Assembly (NCBI GenBank): GCA_026396675.1
Contig: JAPLWI010000013.1
Location: 1,218-65,217 of the forward strand
DNA length: 64,000 nt
From: Candidatus Kaiserbacteria bacterium
GTDB taxonomy: Bacteria; Patescibacteriota; Minisyncoccia; Phycocordibacterales; Phycocordibacteraceae
Reading direction: 5' to 3'
Shown here: piece after piece, positions 1,196 to 62,941 of the stretch
Layout of the letters: each line of letters starts with the position of its first letter
Numbering within the stretch: position 1 is the stretch's first letter
Notes under the pieces: generated by a model
Told to the model about the DNA's origin: nothing
Seen by the model: the letters and a program-made list of their open reading frames with translations, nothing else
The model's database searches: none
Translations under genes and position numbers: made by a program

Positions 1196-2791
1196 ATGTT
1201 GCATAAATTGACTGATAATGTTTTCCGCGGATATTGGCCCTATGTGATTATTTGCACGGTTGGTGTACTTCTCTACGCAAAATCATTTGCATTCGGATTT
1301 ACTTATCTGGACGACCATGTGCTTATTTTGAATAATGTCGCTACGCTTGAGAATTTTTGGTATATCTTCGGCGCCTTTGTGCATGGCGTGTTCCCAGCGG
1401 CACAAGACACATCGCTCTACTACCGACCGCTTCTCACCATATCATTTATGCCGGAGGCGATGATTGGCGGGACAATACCATCTTTCTATCACTTCATAAA
1501 TGTTGTGTTGCACTTAATCTCGGCGTGCTTGGTTTACCTTTTCTTTATCAAACTAAAATACTCAAAAAGGATTTCACTTCTGGCCGGACTCATCTTTGTA
1601 ACGCATCCGGTTTTTGTGCAGGCGGTTGCGTGGATTCCTGGAAGAAATGATCCTCTTCTAGCCATTTTTGTGCTTCTATCTTTCATTTATTTTCTCGACT
1701 TTATCGAGGAAGAAAAACGAAAATCGGTAGTGTATTCAGTATTCTTTTTCGCTTTCGCGCTCTTTACTAAAGAGACATCTGTCGTCTTGCCAGCATTATG
1801 TCTCTTGTATCTTTGGGCGCGCAAAGCACTTAAAAAATCAACGCTTCTGCAATTTTCCGTCGGATGGTTGTCCGCTATTGTTGTGTGGTTTCCAATCCGT
1901 TCTTTCGTTATGAGCGACCAAACGCAGACACCATTCCTCGGTATGATTTCCTCCTTTGTGACGAATGTTCCAGGTACGGTACAAATGGTGGGAAAAATAT
2001 TTTTTCCTTTGAATCTTTCAGTTCTTCCGGTTCTACGGGACACAACCTATCTATGGGGGTATATCGCCATCGCAATCATTGTTGGTTTAGTCGTGTGGCA
2101 ACTGAAGGACAAAAAAGCGTTCATACACAGTTATCGTATGATGCTTTTTGGCGCTGGGTGGTTTCTGTTATTCCTCTGGCCATCATTCATCATTTCCGAT
2201 CCGTCCGGCTCGACCTATTTTCTCGAGCATCGGCTCTATGTGCCGCTCATCGGATTGTTCATCCTCGTTGCCGAGAGTAGTGCGGGCCGCTCTCTAAATG
2301 TAATGTCTCGGAAGCTATTTGTATCTCTGTCGCTTCTCGTTTTGATCCTATTTTCTTGCATTACCTTTGTACACGAAGATGTCTTTTCAAATCGATTAAT
2401 GTTTTGGCAAAGTGCGGCAGTTCATTCTCCTCATTCGTCGTTGGCGAATAAAAATCTCGGTGCGATGTATTATCTCGATCAGAATTATCCGTTGGCTGAA
2501 ATCTATACGCAAAAAGCGCTCGCACTTAATCCGGAAGAACCGATGGCACATAATAATCTCGGTCTTATCGACGCAGCGCGCGGCAAGTTCGATGATGCGA
2601 AAAAAGAATATTTTAAAGAACTCTCCATTAATCTTTTTTATGATAGTGCGCATTACAATCTAGGCCTGCTGTATTACCAGATGGGCGATTTCAGAAATGC
2701 ACGGAAACAGTGGGAACAAACATTGATGATCAATCCGAACTACGACGGCGCACCGCAGGCACTGCAGGAATTAAATCGGGAAGGGAAGTGA
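1196..2791 (+). CDS. Polytopic membrane protein with C-terminal TPR repeats (PMT/ArnT-like GT-C glycosyltransferase candidate)
   Basis: Multi-TM N-terminal domain, then TPR-like repeats (AMYYLDQNYPLAEIYTQKALALNPEE..., NLGLLYYQMGDFRNARKQWEQTL). It sits next to a GT2 polyprenol-P sugar synthase. Confidence 0.55.
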   Translation: MLHKLTDNVFRGYWPYVIICTVGVLLYAKSFAFGFTYLDDHVLILNNVATLENFWYIFGAFVHGVFPAAQDTSLYYRPLLTISFMPEAMIGGTIPSFYHFINVVLHLISACLVYLFFIKLKYSKRISLLAGLIFVTHPVFVQAVAWIPGRNDPLLAIFVLLSFIYFLDFIEEEKRKSVVYSVFFFAFALFTKETSVVLPALCLLYLWARKALKKSTLLQFSVGWLSAIVVWFPIRSFVMSDQTQTPFLGMISSFVTNVPGTVQMVGKIFFPLNLSVLPVLRDTTYLWGYIAIAIIVGLVVWQLKDKKAFIHSYRMMLFGAGWFLLFLWPSFIISDPSGSTYFLEHRLYVPLIGLFILVAESSAGRSLNVMSRKLFVSLSLLVLILFSCITFVHEDVFSNRLMFWQSAAVHSPHSSLANKNLGAMYYLDQNYPLAEIYTQKALALNPEEPMAHNNLGLIDAARGKFDDAKKEYFKELSINLFYDSAHYNLGLLYYQMGDFRNARKQWEQTLMINPNYDGAPQALQELNREGK

Positions 2792-3514
2792 TTACCGAAT
2801 CGGCGTCCAATCGTCCGCAATTGCTTTATTAAAAAGTGTGACACTGACAGTATTGCTAATCCATATCCACCAAAGGCGCGCCCAGCCGACAGCATGTGGG
2901 CGCCGTGCACCGTGATAAATCAGTAGGGAAGAATCATAAACTGTGCGGCCAACTCTGGAAAGACGGCAGAAAAAGTCGCCATCTTCGCGAGTGACGAGAT
3001 CCTCACGGAATCCACCAATTTTTTTAAACGCATCATGCCGCACCAGCATAAATTTTCCCGATGCTTCTCCACGATGCAATACATTGTTTTGGAAACGAAG
3101 CATGATGTTGAGAAAACCATATGAGAGTCGATCTGCCACCGTTTCTAATCCTGGAGTGGCGCGTTGCGGACCGGTGACACCTACCACGTCCGGATTATTT
3201 CTAAAATGGGCAAGTGCGCGTTCAAAAAATTCATGCGGATTAGGAATTTCAACGCCAGCGTCAACGAATGCGAGATAGTCGCCAGTGGCGGCCTTCGCGC
3301 CGTCATTACGTCCAATACCGGCCGTGTGTTTCGTGCCATCAAAAACGACAGTGATATGAGCAAACTGTCGCGCAATCTCAACCGTACGATCTTTGCTTCG
3401 TGCATCCGAGACAATTGTCTCGTGCGGAATTCTGAGATTGTCGCGAAATTGCATAATCGTTTGCCCAATCGTTCTTTCTTCTTCGCGCGCCGGAATAATA
3501 ATAGAGAGCAACAT
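2792..3514 (-). CDS. Family 2 glycosyltransferase
   Basis: LSIIIPAREEERTIGQTI...VSDARSKDRT...FVDAG GT-A motifs. Confidence 0.7.
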   Translation of the reverse strand: MLLSIIIPAREEERTIGQTIMQFRDNLRIPHETIVSDARSKDRTVEIARQFAHITVVFDGTKHTAGIGRNDGAKAATGDYLAFVDAGVEIPNPHEFFERALAHFRNNPDVVGVTGPQRATPGLETVADRLSYGFLNIMLRFQNNVLHRGEASGKFMLVRHDAFKKIGGFREDLVTREDGDFFCRLSRVGRTVYDSSLLIYHGARRPHAVGWARLWWIWISNTVSVTLFNKAIADDWTPIR

Positions 3515-5613: not shown

Positions 5614-6552
5614 TTATTGTTTCTTAATCCACAAATAAATATCTTCAAGCGCCTTAACACCGTCGCCGGCAGCGATATTATTCTGATGATAGAGCTCGTC
5701 TGTGCAGTCGCCGGCGGCCCAAATTCCTTCAATGCTCGTGCGTTGATTGTGTGCGTCCGTTTTTATACGCTTTAAATCGTCAACAGCAACAAGTCCTTCA
5801 GCGAATCCTGTATTCGGAACTACACCAATTTCTACAAAAATACCGGACACGTTACATTCTTTTATTTCCTCTGAATCATTATCTTTATATTTAAAACCAG
5901 TAACGAATCCGCCAGCTGGCGGATCGCCCAGAATCTCAGTCGGTTCGGCATTCGAAATCACGTGCATATTCGGATGTGCGCAGGCCTTAGCAACAGTTAT
6001 CGGATCCGCCTTGAACTCTTTGTTTTTATGGACGAGCGTGACTGACTTCGCGTATGCAAGAAGTTGAAGCGCTGTCTCAAAACCAGCATTGCCGCCACCG
6101 ATGACCGCAACGTCTTGGCCTGAAAACATGGGGCCGTCGCATGAAGCGCAGTAAGTAACACCTTTATTCTCAAATTTCTCCGCGCCGGGGATATCAAGTT
6201 TTCTGCGGCTTGCTCCCGAAGCTACTAAAATTGCTTTCGCAGAAAATTCTTTTCCAGTTTTTGTTTTTGAAATGAATCCAACGTTAATTTTTTCAAGTGA
6301 TTCAACACGTTCGCCTAGTTCAAGCGTTACAAAATCATTTTTTACGGCATCAAGATGCGCACCGAGCGACTTAGCCAAGTCAGCTCCGCTTATCTTCGGT
6401 GTGCCGACCCAATTTTCAATGCCATCTGAAACAACTGATTGCCCACCGATTTCTTCAGCGATGAGAATTGTTTTTAAATGTTTGCGCGCCGCATAAATAC
6501 CCGCGGCAGCGCCTGCCGGCCCCCCGCCGATAATTATTAAGTCATTCATCAC
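5614..6552 (-). CDS. trxB: Thioredoxin-disulfide reductase
   Basis: IIIGGGPAGAAAGIYAAR FAD motif, CASCD redox-active CxxC, GGGNAG NADPH motif, AAGDC. Confidence 0.9.
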   Translation of the reverse strand: MMNDLIIIGGGPAGAAAGIYAARKHLKTILIAEEIGGQSVVSDGIENWVGTPKISGADLAKSLGAHLDAVKNDFVTLELGERVESLEKINVGFISKTKTGKEFSAKAILVASGASRRKLDIPGAEKFENKGVTYCASCDGPMFSGQDVAVIGGGNAGFETALQLLAYAKSVTLVHKNKEFKADPITVAKACAHPNMHVISNAEPTEILGDPPAGGFVTGFKYKDNDSEEIKECNVSGIFVEIGVVPNTGFAEGLVAVDDLKRIKTDAHNQRTSIEGIWAAGDCTDELYHQNNIAAGDGVKALEDIYLWIKKQ

Positions 6553-6709
6553 ACTATCTTACCTCAAATTATTTTTTGTGTATTTATAAAGATGACCTTT
6601 GACACCTTTAATAGATATTGTTACATTCTAGGCAGAAATAGTTCTGGGTAGCGGCAAAGAGCCGTTCTCCTATTGAAAATCAACAAATAAAAATGAAAGG
6701 AGTTGGAAA

Positions 6710-7444
6710 ATGAAGAAATTAAATGTTAAAGATCTTCCAGTCGCAGGGAATGTCTGCGCACAGGTGTTACGCGAGGTAGAAAGATGGTCCACATGGTCAA
6801 TGGCTCACGTAATAATGAACCCGATGGCAGAATCTCTTCCTCACAACCATCAACAGATGGTCGAGATTTATGTCATAACGAAAGGGTACGGTGAATTGGT
6901 AATGGATGTTGGACCAACCACAGCATATTGCAAAGTGACCGGAGGGAATGCATATGGAATTCCGATGGGTCTTACACATATGCTTCGCAACAGAAGTAGT
7001 GGGCACTTGGAACATCTTGTGTTCGCCTTACCTCCATTTGATCCTTCCGATATTCTTCTGGTAAAGAAGGAAGATTTTGCCCAGAGAATATTCAACCTCG
7101 ATATATTCTTGCCTGAAGTGCAAGAATGTTTTGATGGGGCGAAAATACTCCCGTATAGTTTTCCTGCACTCGACCTAAGCATCACCTTCGGTTGGGTTAT
7201 CAACAATCCTGCCAGGCACAAGCAACCTCACTATCACAAAGAAATAACCGAATTTATCTATGTGGTAGAGGGTGAAGGATTCATTGAGATGGACTTTGTT
7301 CGTCGATCAATACAACCAGGCGATTGGATTCGCATCGATCCAGAGATAGAACACGCTCTACGCAACGAATCGCCTGAAGATATGGTTGTCGTATGCGTAT
7401 GTTCACCGGCATTTAAAATGGACGATGTTCATTACCATGTCTGA
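6710..7444 (+). CDS. Bicupin-domain protein
   Basis: Two cupin-like modules (HNHQQMVEIYVITKGYGEL ... HYHKEITEFIYVVEGEGFIE). Confidence 0.55.
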   Translation: MKKLNVKDLPVAGNVCAQVLREVERWSTWSMAHVIMNPMAESLPHNHQQMVEIYVITKGYGELVMDVGPTTAYCKVTGGNAYGIPMGLTHMLRNRSSGHLEHLVFALPPFDPSDILLVKKEDFAQRIFNLDIFLPEVQECFDGAKILPYSFPALDLSITFGWVINNPARHKQPHYHKEITEFIYVVEGEGFIEMDFVRRSIQPGDWIRIDPEIEHALRNESPEDMVVVCVCSPAFKMDDVHYHV

Positions 7445-7505: not shown

Positions 7506-8762
7506 TTATTTTTTGTGTCTGCGTAGGAATGCCGGAATTGCACCCCATGCTTCATCATCTTCTGGAACCACTGGCGCCTCTTCGCGTTTATGCGGCAATG
7601 CAGTTACGATTGGTTCGTCTTTTTGACTCATAACGGTACCTTCCGGATTTAGTTCCTGATTTTTTACCTTTGCCGATTTTTCGGGTTCGGATTTTTCATC
7701 GCGTTTTAGAATCTCATGATAAATACGTCCTCTTTCCTCCTCGTGCTTTTCAGCAGGTAGTGAGAAGAGAGATCGTTCAAGGATAGTGTGCGAAGCAGTT
7801 ACTGCATCTGGGAATCCAGTTGCGATAACGATAATACGGATCTGTCCTTTTTTAAGTTTCTCGTCACGCATAATTCCGAAAATAACCTTCGCACTCTTAT
7901 CAATGGACTCACTGATAACCTTCGCCGCCTCCTGTACTTCCATGATCCCGAGATCATCAGAGCCGGCGACGACAAAGAGAATGCCGCGCGCACCACTGAT
8001 GGAAACATCGAGAAGTGGAGAATTGACTGCCTGGCGAGCAGCTTCTCTAGCACGCTCATCGCCTTCGGCGATGCCGATGCCCATAAGCGCCGGTCCAGCG
8101 CCTTCCATAATCGCCTTAATGTCATTAAAGTCAGTGTTGATGTCTCCTGGAGTCGTGATGATGTCTGAAACACCCTCAACCGCCTGACGCAAGATTTCAT
8201 CGCACATCGCAAAGGCATTTTTCGCCGAAGTGTTGGTGTCAACAATAGAAAGCAACTTATCGTTTGGAATAACGATGAATGCGTCAACTTCTTTTTTTAA
8301 TTCAGTTAATCCTCTCTCAGCAATATCGCGTCGCTGAGCTCCTTCAAAAGAAAATGGCTTTGTCACAACAGCGATAACCAGCGCGCCAACTTCTTTCGCT
8401 ATTTTTGCAATGATAGCGGAGGCGCCCGTTCCAGTTCCGCCACCCATTCCGCAGGTGATGAACACCATATCGCTTCCTGAGAGCGCTTCTTGAATTTCTT
8501 GTCGCGTCTCCTCGGCAGCACGCTTGCCGAGTTCGGGATTCATACCGGTGCCGAGGCCTCGCGTGAGATTCTTCCCGATGTGAATTTTGCGTTTAGAAAG
8601 CGAACGATGAAGATCCTGCGCATCAGAGTTAACGGCAATAAATTCAACGCCGCGAACCTTCGATTCAATCATGTGATTTATCGCGTTCTTACCTGAACCG
8701 CCTACTCCAACTACACGAATCCGTGCGAATGTCTCAATCTCTGGTTCAATGCGTTTTGACAT
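7506..8762 (-). CDS. ftsZ: Cell division GTPase FtsZ
   Basis: VVGVGGSGKNAINHM, GGGTGTGAS tubulin signature, C-terminal disordered tail. Confidence 0.95.
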   Translation of the reverse strand: MSKRIEPEIETFARIRVVGVGGSGKNAINHMIESKVRGVEFIAVNSDAQDLHRSLSKRKIHIGKNLTRGLGTGMNPELGKRAAEETRQEIQEALSGSDMVFITCGMGGGTGTGASAIIAKIAKEVGALVIAVVTKPFSFEGAQRRDIAERGLTELKKEVDAFIVIPNDKLLSIVDTNTSAKNAFAMCDEILRQAVEGVSDIITTPGDINTDFNDIKAIMEGAGPALMGIGIAEGDERAREAARQAVNSPLLDVSISGARGILFVVAGSDDLGIMEVQEAAKVISESIDKSAKVIFGIMRDEKLKKGQIRIIVIATGFPDAVTASHTILERSLFSLPAEKHEEERGRIYHEILKRDEKSEPEKSAKVKNQELNPEGTVMSQKDEPIVTALPHKREEAPVVPEDDEAWGAIPAFLRRHKK

Positions 8763-8839
8763 AAGAATATAAATAATGTGTTTCCGCTATGATAGCAGAA
8801 CCACGCCATATGCAAATATTGACAATGTAGGGATATAAG

Positions 8840-9340
8840 ATGTTAAAATTAACTAGAATGGAACAAAAGATTGATATAGAAAGAGCTATACGCGACCATC
8901 ACAAACTTATAGAAATTTCGCGGAAGTTATACGATGCAACCCCAGAAATTCTTTGTCCTTATTTCAAATCAAATGTCTCGCTTACTTCTGACGGTTTCAA
9001 TCACCTATTACATAAACCGAATAGACAGCCGAGAAATATCCAAGAGCAGAAACTGAAACTCAGATTGTTAAAGCACGGCCTCGCTATCATTAGTAACACA
9101 GGTACGCTTCAGGAATATAGAACCACTCTTGAGAAATATGGAACACCAGGAAGAGATGGATTCAGTAAAACGAAACAAGTTGAATATTGGGGTTTCCATA
9201 ACATTGTTGGTAAAGAACCGATGATTCTAATTCGCATAATTATAAGAAGAATCGGCGATGGGAAATTACATTTTTGGAGTGTGATGCCAATTGGGAAAAT
9301 AGGAAAGCAAAAACTGTATAGAAATGATGTGGAAGAATAG
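8840..9340 (+). CDS. Uncharacterised ~160-aa protein, copy A of a duplicated module (paralog at 62317-62796)
   Basis: Clear paralogy to the minus-strand ORF at 62317-62850 (GFNH, V.YWG, IGDG.LHFWS..P, K.Y blocks). The conserved start is probably ATG 8858 (MEQK...). Confidence 0.7.
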   Translation: MLKLTRMEQKIDIERAIRDHHKLIEISRKLYDATPEILCPYFKSNVSLTSDGFNHLLHKPNRQPRNIQEQKLKLRLLKHGLAIISNTGTLQEYRTTLEKYGTPGRDGFSKTKQVEYWGFHNIVGKEPMILIRIIIRRIGDGKLHFWSVMPIGKIGKQKLYRNDVEE

Positions 9341-9377
9341 TAAACAGAAAAGCCGCCCAACGGGCGGCTGCTCTGTC

Positions 9378-9443
9378 GTGCCTGCCTTCAGCTTAGGTAA
9401 TCCTTAGCCGATAAGGGGCTTACGCCCACAGGCACGGACTCAT
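9378..9443 (+). ncRNA. Conserved structured element (predicted three-way junction), copy A; preceded by hairpin 9352-9368
   Basis: Outer stem GTGCCTG...CAGGCAC encloses two hairpins (GCTTAGG/CCTTAGC and GGGC-TTAC-GCCC). About 85% identical to the reverse complement of 62221-62283. Confidence 0.5.
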
Positions 9444-9486
9444 TATACACTATGACCACAGCTCGGCAACATTTTCCACAAGCTCC

Positions 9487-9684
9487 TCATTTTGCAAGGT
9501 CCATGGAAATTTTGTAGCCCAGATACAAAACACAAAGAAAAGATGTGACTATATATCCATTCATAAAACCGAATCGCCCATCATTTTCTGGGGCGTAGCC
9601 AAGAAGAAAAGTTGCGGCTGCAAAAATCAAAACGAAATAAAGAAAGTTCTTCCAGAAAATTTTATCTTGCAAAGGAAGTTTCAT
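9487..9684 (-). CDS. Small 2-TM membrane protein, translationally coupled to ftsA (start 5 nt after the ftsA stop)
   Basis: Internal Met of ORF 9487-9801. TGAGTAAAATG coupling arrangement, two hydrophobic helices. Confidence 0.4.
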   Translation of the reverse strand: MKLPLQDKIFWKNFLYFVLIFAAATFLLGYAPENDGRFGFMNGYIVTSFLCVLYLGYKISMDLAK

Positions 9685-9689
9685 TTTAC

Positions 9690-10850
9690 TCAAGGCAAAA
9701 ATTGACGCATAAATTTCCCTAAATGCGCACCGATACTCTTCTTCGGAGCGTTTGTGTCGCCAGTTAGACCCCAGAGCGCGAGACCATATGCAACTGCCCA
9801 TGTCGCATCACGAATTTTTGTATCCGAAGAAATGCGAAATTCAGCAAGCCGTGCAGGAAGTTTTAACGAACCCTTCGCAATGTCGCTTATACTTCCAATG
9901 CCAGCACCACCACCAGAAATGATAATACCAGCCGGTAAAGGACCACGACGACCGAGTGATTTTAAATGCTTATCAATAAGCGCGAACATTGCTACAAGAC
10001 GACTTCCGATAAGATCATCGACTTTTTTACGTGGATACATTTGTCCTGAGAGCCGACCAATTTTTACACGTTCCGCTTCTTCAAGCGAGATACGAAGTCC
10101 CAAAGCGATGTCGTCTGTAATATGACTTGAGCCCATCGGGAATACCTTTACGGATACTGGAATGCCCTCATCGTAGACAACGATAGAAATTGTCTCAGCA
10201 CCGATATTAGCTAGCACACAACCCTTCATTTTCTGGTCGCCTTCGAGGAGTACGTATGAGCCAGCGAGTGGGGAAGCCATTTGGTCGATGATTTCAATAT
10301 CTGCATCTTCGACTGCTTTCGCGAGAGCGTCTTCATGTTGCGCTAGGCAAGTTACGAAAAGATAATCAACTTCAAGCCGAACGCCTTTCATGCCGAATGG
10401 ATCACCAAGCACTTTTGCGCCATCAATACGATATTCAAGTGGGATGCTGTGCAGAACGTGTCGATTAAGAAACCCTGGTGCCGCCACTTCGCGAGCCGCC
10501 TTTCCTGCCTTCTCAAGGTCGAGAGATGTTATTTCTTGGTCGGCTCGCGAGATAATCGCCGAGCCAGTTGCGCGCGATTCGTCGAGCGAAATTCCACCAA
10601 CTGCAAGGAATCCAGAACGAATCGGAATGCGCGCCGACGCCTCTGCTTGTCTCTTTGCTTTCACGATGCAAGCAGAAACCTCTTCTTTATTTACGATGTA
10701 ACCGTGCCGTAGGCCTTTTGATTCGGCGAGGCCAGTACCAAGAATCCGCAATTGACGCAGACCACTGCGTTTGTCCGAGATTTCTTCGACGGTGACTATC
10801 TTTATCTGATAGGTACCGATATCAATGCCGGTCGCTACGCGTCGTGACAT
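9690..10850 (-). CDS. ftsA: Cell division protein FtsA
   Basis: Actin-fold motifs (GIDIGTYQIKIV, ISGGGAGIGSISD). Confidence 0.9.
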   Translation of the reverse strand: MSRRVATGIDIGTYQIKIVTVEEISDKRSGLRQLRILGTGLAESKGLRHGYIVNKEEVSACIVKAKRQAEASARIPIRSGFLAVGGISLDESRATGSAIISRADQEITSLDLEKAGKAAREVAAPGFLNRHVLHSIPLEYRIDGAKVLGDPFGMKGVRLEVDYLFVTCLAQHEDALAKAVEDADIEIIDQMASPLAGSYVLLEGDQKMKGCVLANIGAETISIVVYDEGIPVSVKVFPMGSSHITDDIALGLRISLEEAERVKIGRLSGQMYPRKKVDDLIGSRLVAMFALIDKHLKSLGRRGPLPAGIIISGGGAGIGSISDIAKGSLKLPARLAEFRISSDTKIRDATWAVAYGLALWGLTGDTNAPKKSIGAHLGKFMRQFLP

Positions 10851-61637: not shown

Positions 61638-61904
61638 ATGTATGGAATGCATTTCGTCTACATCCTCGAATGCGTCGATAAATCTCTTTATGTCGGATGT
61701 ACTAATAATCTCGAGAAACGCCTCAAACAACATAACGATTCAAAATGGGGTGCGCACTATACAAAAATCCGTAGGCCAGTAATTCTGAAATATTCAGAAA
61801 CATTTCCAACTCTTAAAGAAGCTCGTAAACGAGAATCCGAAATCAAAAGTTGGCGACGAGAAAAGAAATTAAGTTTGATACAATACAAGTTATGCAAAAA
61901 ATAG
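61638..61904 (+). CDS. GIY-YIG nuclease-domain protein (YhbQ/UPF0213-like)
   Basis: HFVYILEC...SLYVGCTNNLEKRLKQHN. Confidence 0.7.
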   Translation: MYGMHFVYILECVDKSLYVGCTNNLEKRLKQHNDSKWGAHYTKIRRPVILKYSETFPTLKEARKRESEIKSWRREKKLSLIQYKLCKK

Positions 61905-62164
61905 AAAAGAAGATTTGGCCGGAATATTTTCAGCAGGTTCTTGATAACAAGAAAATATTTGAGCTTCGTCTGAATGATTTTGAAATTGAAGAGGGCGACA
62001 CGCTTGTACTGAAAGAATGGGATCCAGAGACAAAGGAGTACACAGGTCGGGAAGTAGAGAAACAGGTTGGCTATGTCGGCAAATGGAAAATTGAAGAACT
62101 AGAAAAGTTCTGGCCAAAAGAAGATATAGACAGTAAGGGACTTCAGGTTATTTCAATAAAATAG
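61892..62164 (+). CDS. ASCH/DUF3850-like small protein
   Basis: KKIWPEYFQQVLDNKKIFELRLNDFEIEEGDTLVLKEW pattern. Start at the internal Met. Confidence 0.4.
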   Translation: MQKIEKKIWPEYFQQVLDNKKIFELRLNDFEIEEGDTLVLKEWDPETKEYTGREVEKQVGYVGKWKIEELEKFWPKEDIDSKGLQVISIK

Positions 62165-62220
62165 TTGGAAACAGCGTTACCCACACCCTCATTGATTCCT
62201 CACTTCCTATCCTGTATAGT

Positions 62221-62283
62221 ATGAGTGTGCCTGTGGGGCGTCAGCCCTATTCCGGCTAATCGTAAGCCGAAGGCAGGCATATC
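62221..62283 (-). ncRNA. Conserved structured element (predicted three-way junction), copy B; preceded on the minus strand by hairpin 62284-62316
   Basis: The reverse complement reads ATGCCTGCCTTCGGCTTACGATTAGCCGGAATAGGGCTGACGCCCCACAGGCACACTCAT, homologous to 9378-9443. Confidence 0.5.
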
Positions 62284-62316
62284 AAAATCACCGACCTCGC
62301 GTCGGTGTTTTTGATT

Positions 62317-62796
62317 TTAGTCCTCCTCGGGATTACCCTTCATTGTGCTGTAGAGCTTTATGTCGCGGTATTTGTTCGTCGTCCACGCTGGCACAATGCT
62401 CCAGAAATGGAGTTGGCCATTATCGCCGATTTTTCGCAGGATGACTTTTATCTTGCGTCCATCAATAATCGCTATGATGCCCCAGTACTTTACAGACCTG
62501 CTTCTCTGAACCTTTTTCTTATAGCTCTTCACTTCAAATTCTTTGAGCGTTTCTTCATATTCCTGATAAGTCGTTGAGAGTTCTACGAGCTTTACGGCTT
62601 TCGGCAATAACTTAAATCGCAGGATTTGTGATGGACGCTCGCGCTCGCTCCGTGAGCCCTTAAAGATGATGTGATTGAAGCCCTCGGCGGTAAAATAAAC
62701 ATACTCACCAAGCGCGGGAGATTGGATAGGACGTATACTCGCGTAGAACTTCTGCGCGTCCTCACAGAGTTTTTCGTAGTTAGATACATCTTCCAT
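62317..62796 (-). CDS. Uncharacterised ~160-aa protein, copy B of the duplicated module (paralog of 8840-9340)
   Basis: Aligns end-to-end with copy A. The ORF track extends it to a TTG at 62850; the conserved ATG (MEDVS...) is at 62796. Confidence 0.7.
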   Translation of the reverse strand: MEDVSNYEKLCEDAQKFYASIRPIQSPALGEYVYFTAEGFNHIIFKGSRSERERPSQILRFKLLPKAVKLVELSTTYQEYEETLKEFEVKSYKKKVQRSRSVKYWGIIAIIDGRKIKVILRKIGDNGQLHFWSIVPAWTTNKYRDIKLYSTMKGNPEED

Positions 62797-62941
62797 TGAG
62801 AATAGTTTACACCGTTGCAAGCAAATCTGGTATAAATATCTTATATGCAAACTGTGATTTACCAGTCAGAAGTACGGTTCTGACTTCATCCAAGTCCCGC
62901 AGCCGGCGCTTTTTACTTGGAATTATGCTATACATTTAACT

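Follow-up and report, generated by a model that had tools for sequence, protein, structure and literature searches.

The gap between the cell-division genes ftsA and ftsZ on a contig of a Candidatus Kaiserbacteria bacterium, a member of the ultrasmall bacteria of the Candidate Phyla Radiation (CPR, or Patescibacteria), holds a compact cassette of two predicted convergent genes, one for a protein of about 160 residues and one for a structured small RNA. A second copy of the pair lies elsewhere in the same 64,000-nucleotide stretch of DNA (hereafter the window). The protein and the RNA are linked in about 150 loci, an association that is near-obligate whatever the orientation of the two genes. 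Judged by sequence comparison, both component families are undescribed, matching no described RNA or protein family, and our reading of the literature found no description of either family, of a CPR small RNA like this one, or of a function for LPD3, the domain that the protein most resembles. We tentatively interpret the cassette as a type III toxin-antitoxin-like system, in which the structured RNA would restrain a nucleic-acid-targeting protein; we give this interpretation a chance approaching even, and the mechanism has a fair chance of being new.

The RNA was identified with nhmmer, seeded with the two window copies and run on 73 loci from GTDB, and lies 40-80 nt past the stop codon of almost every homologue of the protein. 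Its 58-nt core is a three-way junction, formed by a 7-bp stem (P1), a single U, a second stem of the form GGGC-GNRA-GCCC (P2), a short joiner, a third stem (P3) that spans about 11 bp and contains an A·A mismatch, and a joiner of 2-3 nt. In the copy between ftsA and ftsZ (copy 1), P1 reads GUGCCUG/CAGGCAC, P2 reads GGGC-GUAA-GCCC, and P3 has 11 bp and the A·A mismatch. The 3' end of the RNA, seen in about 70 loci, consists of a 6-9-nt A/C-rich linker and a strong hairpin, which has an A-tract on its 5' side and a U-tract on its 3' side. Across an alignment of 70 sequences (A2), 96.1% of cells are paired, compensatory changes occur in 10 of the 21 pairs, and P1 and P2 are 100% paired; none of 500 shuffled controls reaches the observed level, and controls in which the structure was slid along the alignment fall to 13-53%. 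Much the same is seen in 102 metagenomic copies that form a largely independent set: aligned to the covariance model (R1), they give 96.7% pairing and nine compensatory pairs. The minimum-free-energy fold of each of the two RNAs, each about 95 nt long, is the consensus plus the terminator (z = -7.4 for copy 1 and -5.9 for copy 2). Chance is excluded by the pairing and compensation, which surpass all 500 shuffles, by the z-scores of the folds, and by the linkage to the protein in about 150 loci.

Several features place the RNA on the strand opposite to the protein gene. G·U pairs number 62 on that strand and 16 on the other, and P1 and P2 are 100% paired there only. The P2 loop is GAAA, GCAA, GUAA or GAGA, all of the GNRA type, in 67 of the 70 sequences, whereas the opposite strand would give UUNC. 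A predicted promoter stands at a fixed distance, with the T, A and final T of a -10 element in 67-68 of 71 loci at -12 to -7 and TTG at -35 to -33, and the U-tract terminator closes the unit. For copy 1, a promoter and terminator scan called, on the minus strand, a promoter at 9469-9442 (10 of 12 matches) and a terminator at 9369-9351 plus its tail, TTTCTGTTTA; it also called a matching promoter and terminator on the plus strand for copy 2. The element is thus, by prediction, a separate, convergent small-RNA gene with its own promoter and a start near 9435, rather than a 3' appendage of the plus-strand gene, as a preliminary description of the window had it: that description placed a structured element of about 65 nt at 9378-9443 within a plus-strand unit, and of this the conserved element stands, at 9378-9435, while its strand and nature do not. 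The transcripts of the small RNA and of the protein gene share a predicted terminator, only a few nucleotides from the stop codon.

Known RNA families do not account for the element. With Rfam 15 the window gives tRNAs only, and the interval 8700-9750 gives only chance-level matches (E = 0.9-4), far below the gathering scores. Hammerhead and other self-cleaving ribozymes, tRNA-like RNAs, signal recognition particle RNA, 5S RNA and transfer-messenger RNA were compared by junction order, Rfam and ARAGORN, and none of them fits. The 3' strand of P3 in copy 1 (9386-9391, minus strand) reads CCUAAG, half of the classical 11-nt GAAA-tetraloop receptor, and faces CUAAGG with the A·A mismatch. A GNAA loop on P2 could conceivably contact this receptor half across the junction.

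Starting from the protein, we counted 72 convergent pairs and two tandem ones, in which the order is RNA, terminator, protein. The reverse search, from the RNA, used an 18-nt core pattern against metagenomes and retrieved 120 stretches, of which 102 contain an nhmmer match to the small RNA; this set comprises 77 convergent, five tandem and two divergent pairs, three RNAs at contig ends, and 17 RNAs without a protein detectable by hidden Markov model. The two sets overlap in a few contigs. Several of the 17 protein-less RNAs adjoin either the decayed 3' end of a gene or a very divergent homologue. Such orphan RNAs, whose own genes are intact, include L110, L155, L171 and L186, where the sequence concerned lies downstream of the small-RNA terminator, as well as L133 and L175; what adjoins them are remnants (for example one ending in ...DGIDDE*) or divergent or truncated homologues. 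At L110, L113 and L172, genes nearby have sequences that, judged by eye, look like those of RelE/ParE or HicA/HicB toxin-antitoxin genes. All-against-all clustering of the flanking open reading frames (ORFs) yielded no third conserved gene. The neighbouring genes are unrelated between loci, and even a homologue with 57% identity sits in an unrelated context. A few copies are found in large contigs from other phyla. In two of these, from outside the CPR (Thermoanaerobaculum and Hydrogenedentota), a large serine recombinase with Resolvase, Recombinase and Zn_ribbon_recom domains lies directly upstream of the protein gene (L058:3360-4928 and L072:2839-4401), suggesting carriage on an integrative element in those phyla.

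The protein belongs to what is, on these searches, a large and unannotated family, mostly of CPR/Patescibacteria. A word-indexed search returned 159 close matches, mostly of about 160 residues, and an exhaustive one 1237 clusters at 50% identity (E <= 1e-3); an identical protein is on deposit as 'hypothetical protein NTU85_02060'. The conserved blocks picked out in the preliminary description (GFNH, YWG, GDG.LHFWS..P and K.Y) prove conserved or invariant across the family alignment: among close members DGFNH, QEYR, YWGF, GDG..FWSV.P and QKLY are invariant or nearly so (alignment A1), and family-wide the invariant residues are P34, H49 and R59, together with many conserved polar residues. The statement that the protein falls in no known family likewise held up, there being no housekeeping match in Pfam, NCBIfam, PADLOC, PHROGs or PDB sequences; for neither window copy did profile searches of these collections give a match of any kind. 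An AlphaFold2 model of copy 1 (predicted local distance difference test score 87.5) is a predicted globular alpha/beta protein, built from a four-stranded antiparallel sheet, a beta-hairpin and three helices, of which the N-terminal one is long; Foldseek found nothing significant for it in the PDB.

The one recurrent resemblance is to LPD3 (PF18798). Sub-threshold Pfam matches to it occur in 19 of 44 diverse members, extend over the whole 114-position profile and reach E = 1.3e-5, while other Pfam families recur in at most two of the 44. The best scores, 23.3-23.9 bits in the best relatives, lie under the Pfam gathering cut-off of 27 bits. Among the viral models of BFVD, Foldseek matched LPD3-containing phage proteins, with an LPD3 fragment at probability 0.93 and TM-score 0.48 (E = 0.12). 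The protein is probably a distant relative of LPD3, and we therefore call it LPD3-like. LPD3 belongs to a set of 40 domains, all of unknown function, that occur in polyvalent proteins of phages and conjugative elements (Iyer et al. 2017, PMC5512222); its 'precise functions remain elusive', and it is found in conflict-related proteins beside predicted RNase (PBECR) domains (PMC5512222). Three other candidates were set aside. Sec66 gives weak Pfam matches in 17 close members but in only one of the 44 diverse ones, a compositional or local artefact; an HUH/Y1 transposase (IS200 or RAYT-like) does not fit, with neither an HUH motif nor a Y1_Tnp match; and the Rx4-6H motif of HEPN proteins is not borne out, the His not being conserved and the fold not being all-alpha.

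Many of the small-RNA promoters carry a DnaA box. We scored the 9-mer TTATCCACA in either orientation at positions -45 to -60, upstream of the -35 element. Among 71 promoters of GTDB loci, 31 have a box with at most one mismatch (about 1.9 expected) and 15 a perfect box (about 0.2 expected); the 89 promoters of metagenome loci give 27 (about 2.0 expected) and 11 (about 0.24 expected), respectively. Perfect boxes are thus about 45-65-fold above background in both datasets, and about a third of the promoters carry a box. It lies about 50 nt upstream of the small-RNA start in L008, L023, L025, L028, L031, L032, L034, L037, L040, L042, L048, L049, L051, L057 and the second RNA copy of L013. Judged by their sequence, these boxes would be bound by DnaA.

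The layout of the gap is summarized in Table 1. Pfam bears out the two flanking genes on the minus strand, ftsZ at 7506-8762 (Tubulin and FtsZ_C) and ftsA at 9690-10850 (FtsA), with 927 bp between them. The plus-strand ORF of about 160 residues had been placed at 8840-9340; its end at 9340 stands, and its start is most likely the ATG at 8858, because the homologues are nearly all about 160 residues long and align from that methionine. The hairpin noted at 9352-9368, which is rich in G+C, is present at 9351-9369 and extends to 9344-9376, and the second copy of protein and element was found at 62213-62850, with the second cassette placed at 62177-62796. The preliminary description was thus essentially correct, save for the start of the ORF and for what the RNA element is and on which strand it lies. 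It had not mentioned the 65-aa minus-strand ORF that the gap also contains (9487-9684). This ORF has no match in the family libraries, and two related loci with the cassette at the same site, L006 and L007, lack a conserved counterpart of 9451-9689; the ORF is not part of the cassette and may be spurious or strain-specific cargo.

Table 1. Features of the two cassettes and of the sequence around them (window coordinates).
Feature	Position	Strand	Description and basis
Resident ftsZ promoter block	8763..8826	-	TTTGCA, 16 nt, TATCAT at 8816-8789; promoter scan and conservation in relatives
Putative protein-gene promoter	8819..8849	+	TTGACA 8819-8824, 19-nt spacer, TAAAAT 8844-8849; read from the sequence
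LPD3-like protein gene, copy 1, 160 aa	8858..9340	+	ORF list, homologue alignment, AlphaFold2 model
Bidirectional intrinsic terminator, copy 1 (predicted)	9344..9376	both	Stem 9351-9369 between A-tract and T-tract; inverted repeat and scan
Predicted small-RNA gene, copy 1, about 95 nt	9341..9435	-	Core 9378-9435; covariance model, covariation, fold
Predicted sigma-70-type small-RNA promoter, copy 1	9442..9469	-	-35 TTGCCG 9469-9464, 16-nt spacer, -10 TATAAT 9447-9442
DnaA-box-like 9-mer, TTTTCCACA	9472..9480		One mismatch to TTATCCACA; directly upstream of the -35
Hydrophobic ORF, 65 aa (MKLPLQDKIFWKNFLYFVLIFAAATFLLGY...)	9487..9684	-	ORF list; fills the remainder of the inserted segment, directly downstream of ftsA
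DnaA-box-like 9-mer, TTACCCACA	62177..62185		One mismatch; upstream of the copy 2 -35
Predicted small-RNA promoter, copy 2	62192..62220	+	TTGATT, 17 nt, TATAGT; promoter scan
Predicted small-RNA gene, copy 2	62227..62316	+	Core 62227-62280; GUCA loop on P2, shorter P3; covariance model and fold
Bidirectional terminator, copy 2 (predicted)	62283..62314	both	Stem 62289-62307; the scan calls a terminator on each strand
Paralogous protein gene, copy 2, 159 aa	62317..62796	-	tblastn E = 2.7e-22, ORF list, alignment A1

The two cassettes of the window are distant paralogues. Their proteins are 32% identical (tblastn, E = 2.7e-22) and their RNA elements 76% identical, and the covariance model R1 finds these two RNAs and no others in the 64 kb (9375-9438, minus strand, 79 bits; 62224-62283, plus strand, 52 bits). 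Copy 2 has as its neighbours a gene with a GIY-YIG nuclease domain (61638-61904) and a DUF3850/ASCH gene (61850-62164), the 3' end of which overlaps the promoter region of the small RNA. A GIY-YIG gene is also found upstream of the orphan small RNA in the metagenome locus L159.

Comparison with close relatives indicates that copy 1 was inserted, as the preliminary description had supposed and for which it had proposed looking for an empty site. Two such sites exist: the spacer between ftsA and ftsZ is 91 bp in L081 (FtsZ 88% identical) and 72 bp in L082 (87%). In other relatives the site is filled differently, with a methyltransferase gene and an opposite-strand gene for an NYN-domain protein, a predicted RNase, in L079 (FtsZ 92%; 2001-3368), and with a class IV aminotransferase gene in L080 (90%; 2595-3437). 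Among the relatives compared, the cassette at this site is common only to the sub-lineage of L006 (FtsZ 94%) and L007 (86%), where it lies beside ftsZ, with a 326-aa protein of unknown function (5632-6612) or a glyoxalase-like protein (5647-6006), respectively, beside ftsA. What all these loci keep is the C-terminus of FtsA and a block of about 64 bp upstream of ftsZ (window 8763-8826), so that the insert extends from about 8827 to 9689. The cassette does not have the make-up of an insertion sequence or transposon; neither a transposase, nor terminal inverted repeats, nor a target-site duplication was found, and the short direct repeats for which a search had been proposed are absent beside the insert, the short matches at its flanks being at chance level. 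The view of an inserted, self-contained or selfish module in the division operon is nonetheless supported by the empty sites and the varied contexts, 'selfish' being a matter of interpretation.

In every relative compared, ftsZ keeps its own predicted promoter downstream of the insert, and probably for this reason the junction tolerates cargo. On this evidence from relatives, the ftsA-ftsZ junction of the Kaiserbacteria lineage is a tolerated insertion hot spot. In the empty-site relative L081, a HicA/HicB pair lies just downstream of the ftsZ-trxB block (5829-6273), a further sign that the neighbourhood gathers small accessory modules. In the window, a bicupin-like gene (Cupin_2, in two stretches; 6710-7444, plus strand) lies on the opposite strand between ftsZ and a thioredoxin-reductase-like gene (5614-6552); the latter two are adjacent in L079-L082, so that the bicupin-like gene may be another local insertion.

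The promoter assigned to the protein gene is tentative, since it was not called by the scan tool and its spacer, at 19 nt, is long. L006 and L007 show the same layout. In many homologues the ATG is preceded, at 7-20 nt, by a -10-like box, and there is no Shine-Dalgarno sequence. Tentatively, then, the protein would be made from a leaderless or very short-leader mRNA, under a promoter that looks weak beside the near-consensus promoter of the RNA. The putative -35 element, TTGACA, sits in the resident ftsZ-promoter block (window 8819-8826; reverse complement ATTGTCAATATTTGCAT). Because the empty-site genomes have this conserved block too, the insert may be making use of a divergent -35 that was already there.

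We propose that the cassette is an accessory two-gene unit, lodged past the end of ftsA and ahead of the resident ftsZ promoter, whose small RNA would act in trans by virtue of its fold; the simplest form of this would be binding to the partner protein, giving a ribonucleoprotein. The abundant structured RNA would then neutralise or control a potentially harmful, nucleic-acid-targeting protein, and in many copies the DnaA box by the -35 element would couple RNA synthesis to DnaA and to replication status; expression of ftsZ would be unaffected, its own conserved promoter lying downstream of the insert. Action in trans is suggested by the linkage, which survives changes of orientation, by the position of the conserved part outside the overlap with the mRNA, and by the want of cognate complementarity at the mRNA start: pairing of the RNA with the 5' region of the mRNA is no stronger for cognate partners (-17.55 vs -17.51 kcal/mol, p = 0.56). 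A type III-like system agrees with the patchy, multi-copy and horizontally spread distribution, the orphan RNAs beside decaying genes, the near-consensus RNA promoter and the flavour of a conflict system that the protein family has. Several observations weigh against it. The RNA is a single unit rather than a tandem repeat array, and its sequence conservation far exceeds that of the protein (74% vs 28% mean column identity), which is atypical for RNA antitoxins and suggests contact with a universally conserved partner or ligand. Many of the flanking genes are ordinary housekeeping genes, and no homologue was found in IMG/VR viral contigs, in phage and plasmid collections (tblastn), in PADLOC or in PHROGs. 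The matches to LPD3 all lie below the Pfam cut-off, and the window protein itself has none. Finally, both DnaA boxes of the window are imperfect and not significant alone, one-mismatch boxes being common in the window.

A broader account, possible if doubtful, would make the pair an undescribed protein-RNA class, in which a stand-alone LPD3-like effector is joined to a DnaA-gated three-way-junction RNA, CPR-wide and spread horizontally to other phyla; the RNA would be an antitoxin, sensor or specificity subunit, tying the activity of the protein to the state of replication, or to the titration of DnaA by invading DNA. Rather unlikely, to our mind, is a housekeeping or regulatory ribonucleoprotein linked to the cell cycle, in which a DnaA-regulated RNA and a dedicated chaperone or processing protein would control replication or division in the CPR, and which would be neither a toxin-antitoxin nor a selfish module. 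The strong enrichment of the box at a fixed spot upstream of the RNA promoter, the high conservation of the RNA sequence across phyla, the housekeeping genes that flank many copies and the position of copy 1 between ftsA and ftsZ, common to L006 and L007, would all suit such a role; yet very close relatives lack the cassette at that locus, the context varies with no conserved target gene nearby, and the box is present in only about a third of promoters. Paralogues 32% identical in one genome, orphan RNAs beside decayed protein genes, and copies in distant phyla beside serine recombinases are likewise at odds with a housekeeping function.

The convergent arrangement raises the question of whether the RNA is simply a cis-antisense regulator of the type I kind, with the complementary 3' ends, or read-through into the protein gene, controlling the stability of the mRNA without any binding of the protein. 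About 94% of pairs are convergent with one shared bidirectional terminator, a layout like that of bsrG/SR4 in Bacillus. Even so, we regard this as improbable: the seven tandem and two divergent pairs are linked without overlap, the covarying three-way junction lies outside the overlap, which consists of the terminator only, and would be left unexplained, the mRNA 5' region gives no cognate-specific pairing, and a soluble protein of 160 residues is not a small hydrophobic peptide. More improbable still is a riboswitch-like aptamer, in which occupancy by a ligand would set termination and hence antisense read-through into the protein gene. The compact junction, with nucleotides invariant across phyla and a terminator within about 8 nt of it, is reminiscent of such elements, but P1 and the terminator form together in both the minimum-free-energy and the centroid structure, with no anti-terminator pairing apparent, the terminator sequences vary freely, and there is no match to an Rfam riboswitch family. 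The RNA is moreover co-directional with the protein gene in only seven loci, and in these tandem loci, where the protein gene lies downstream, the logic would be the opposite. That the conserved element acts as DNA, as a recombination, attachment or replication site with its DnaA box, is scarcely tenable; the nearby box and the serine recombinases adjoining two loci are what would point to it, whereas the asymmetry of G·U and A·C between strands, the GNRA loop, the pairing-preserving changes and the fixed promoter and terminator indicate a transcribed structured RNA, and the element has no conserved recombinase partner.

A large part of bacterial diversity belongs to the CPR/Patescibacteria, and to our knowledge next to nothing is known about the non-coding RNAs of these bacteria or about their toxin-antitoxin and defence repertoire. 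The cassette adds a new structured small-RNA family absent from Rfam and, as its near-obligate partner, a protein family that Pfam lacks and that numbers at least 1237 clusters at 50% identity. At about 650 bp, the pair is compact and directly testable in E. coli. If the protein is an RNA-neutralised effector, the concept of type III toxin-antitoxin systems would be widened to single structured RNAs, and a first functional clue would be gained for the LPD3 domain of phage and plasmid polyvalent proteins; and the association with DnaA boxes, if real, would tie an accessory RNA-protein module to the initiator of replication, which would be unusual.

Among known systems, the convergent type I loci of Bacillus (bsrG/SR4 and txpA/RatA) resemble the cassette in that the protein and small-RNA genes converge and their 3' ends overlap at a shared terminator. 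The toxins of those loci are membrane-acting peptides of fewer than 60 residues and their RNAs are purely antisense, whereas the cassette encodes a predicted soluble protein of 160 residues and an RNA with a conserved junction outside the overlap. LPD3 in phages and plasmids differs in other respects: the domain of the cassette stands alone, on chromosomes of the CPR, and is paired with a small RNA, and no RNA partner has been described for LPD3. RNase toxins of the BECR fold, such as the CdiA-CT of Klebsiella pneumoniae 342 (PDB 6cp9), are also among the closest systems. A further likeness is to the type III toxin-antitoxin systems (ToxIN, CptIN and TenpIN, and also AvcID), with distinct differences. 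The type III RNA is an array of 34-36-nt repeats and is co-transcribed with its toxin gene, while the cassette RNA is one three-way junction of about 60 nt, no repeat array was found in the ftsA-ftsZ gap, and the genes are usually convergent (about 94% of loci); nor does the protein match any ToxN/AbiQ, CptN, TenpN or AvcD model in Pfam or PADLOC. What the cassette shares with type III systems is the pairing of a protein with a dedicated non-coding RNA, a protein antitoxin being absent, the separation of RNA and protein gene by an intrinsic terminator, a strong RNA promoter, an accessory, patchy and multi-copy distribution and, in seven loci, the RNA-terminator-protein order of toxIN.

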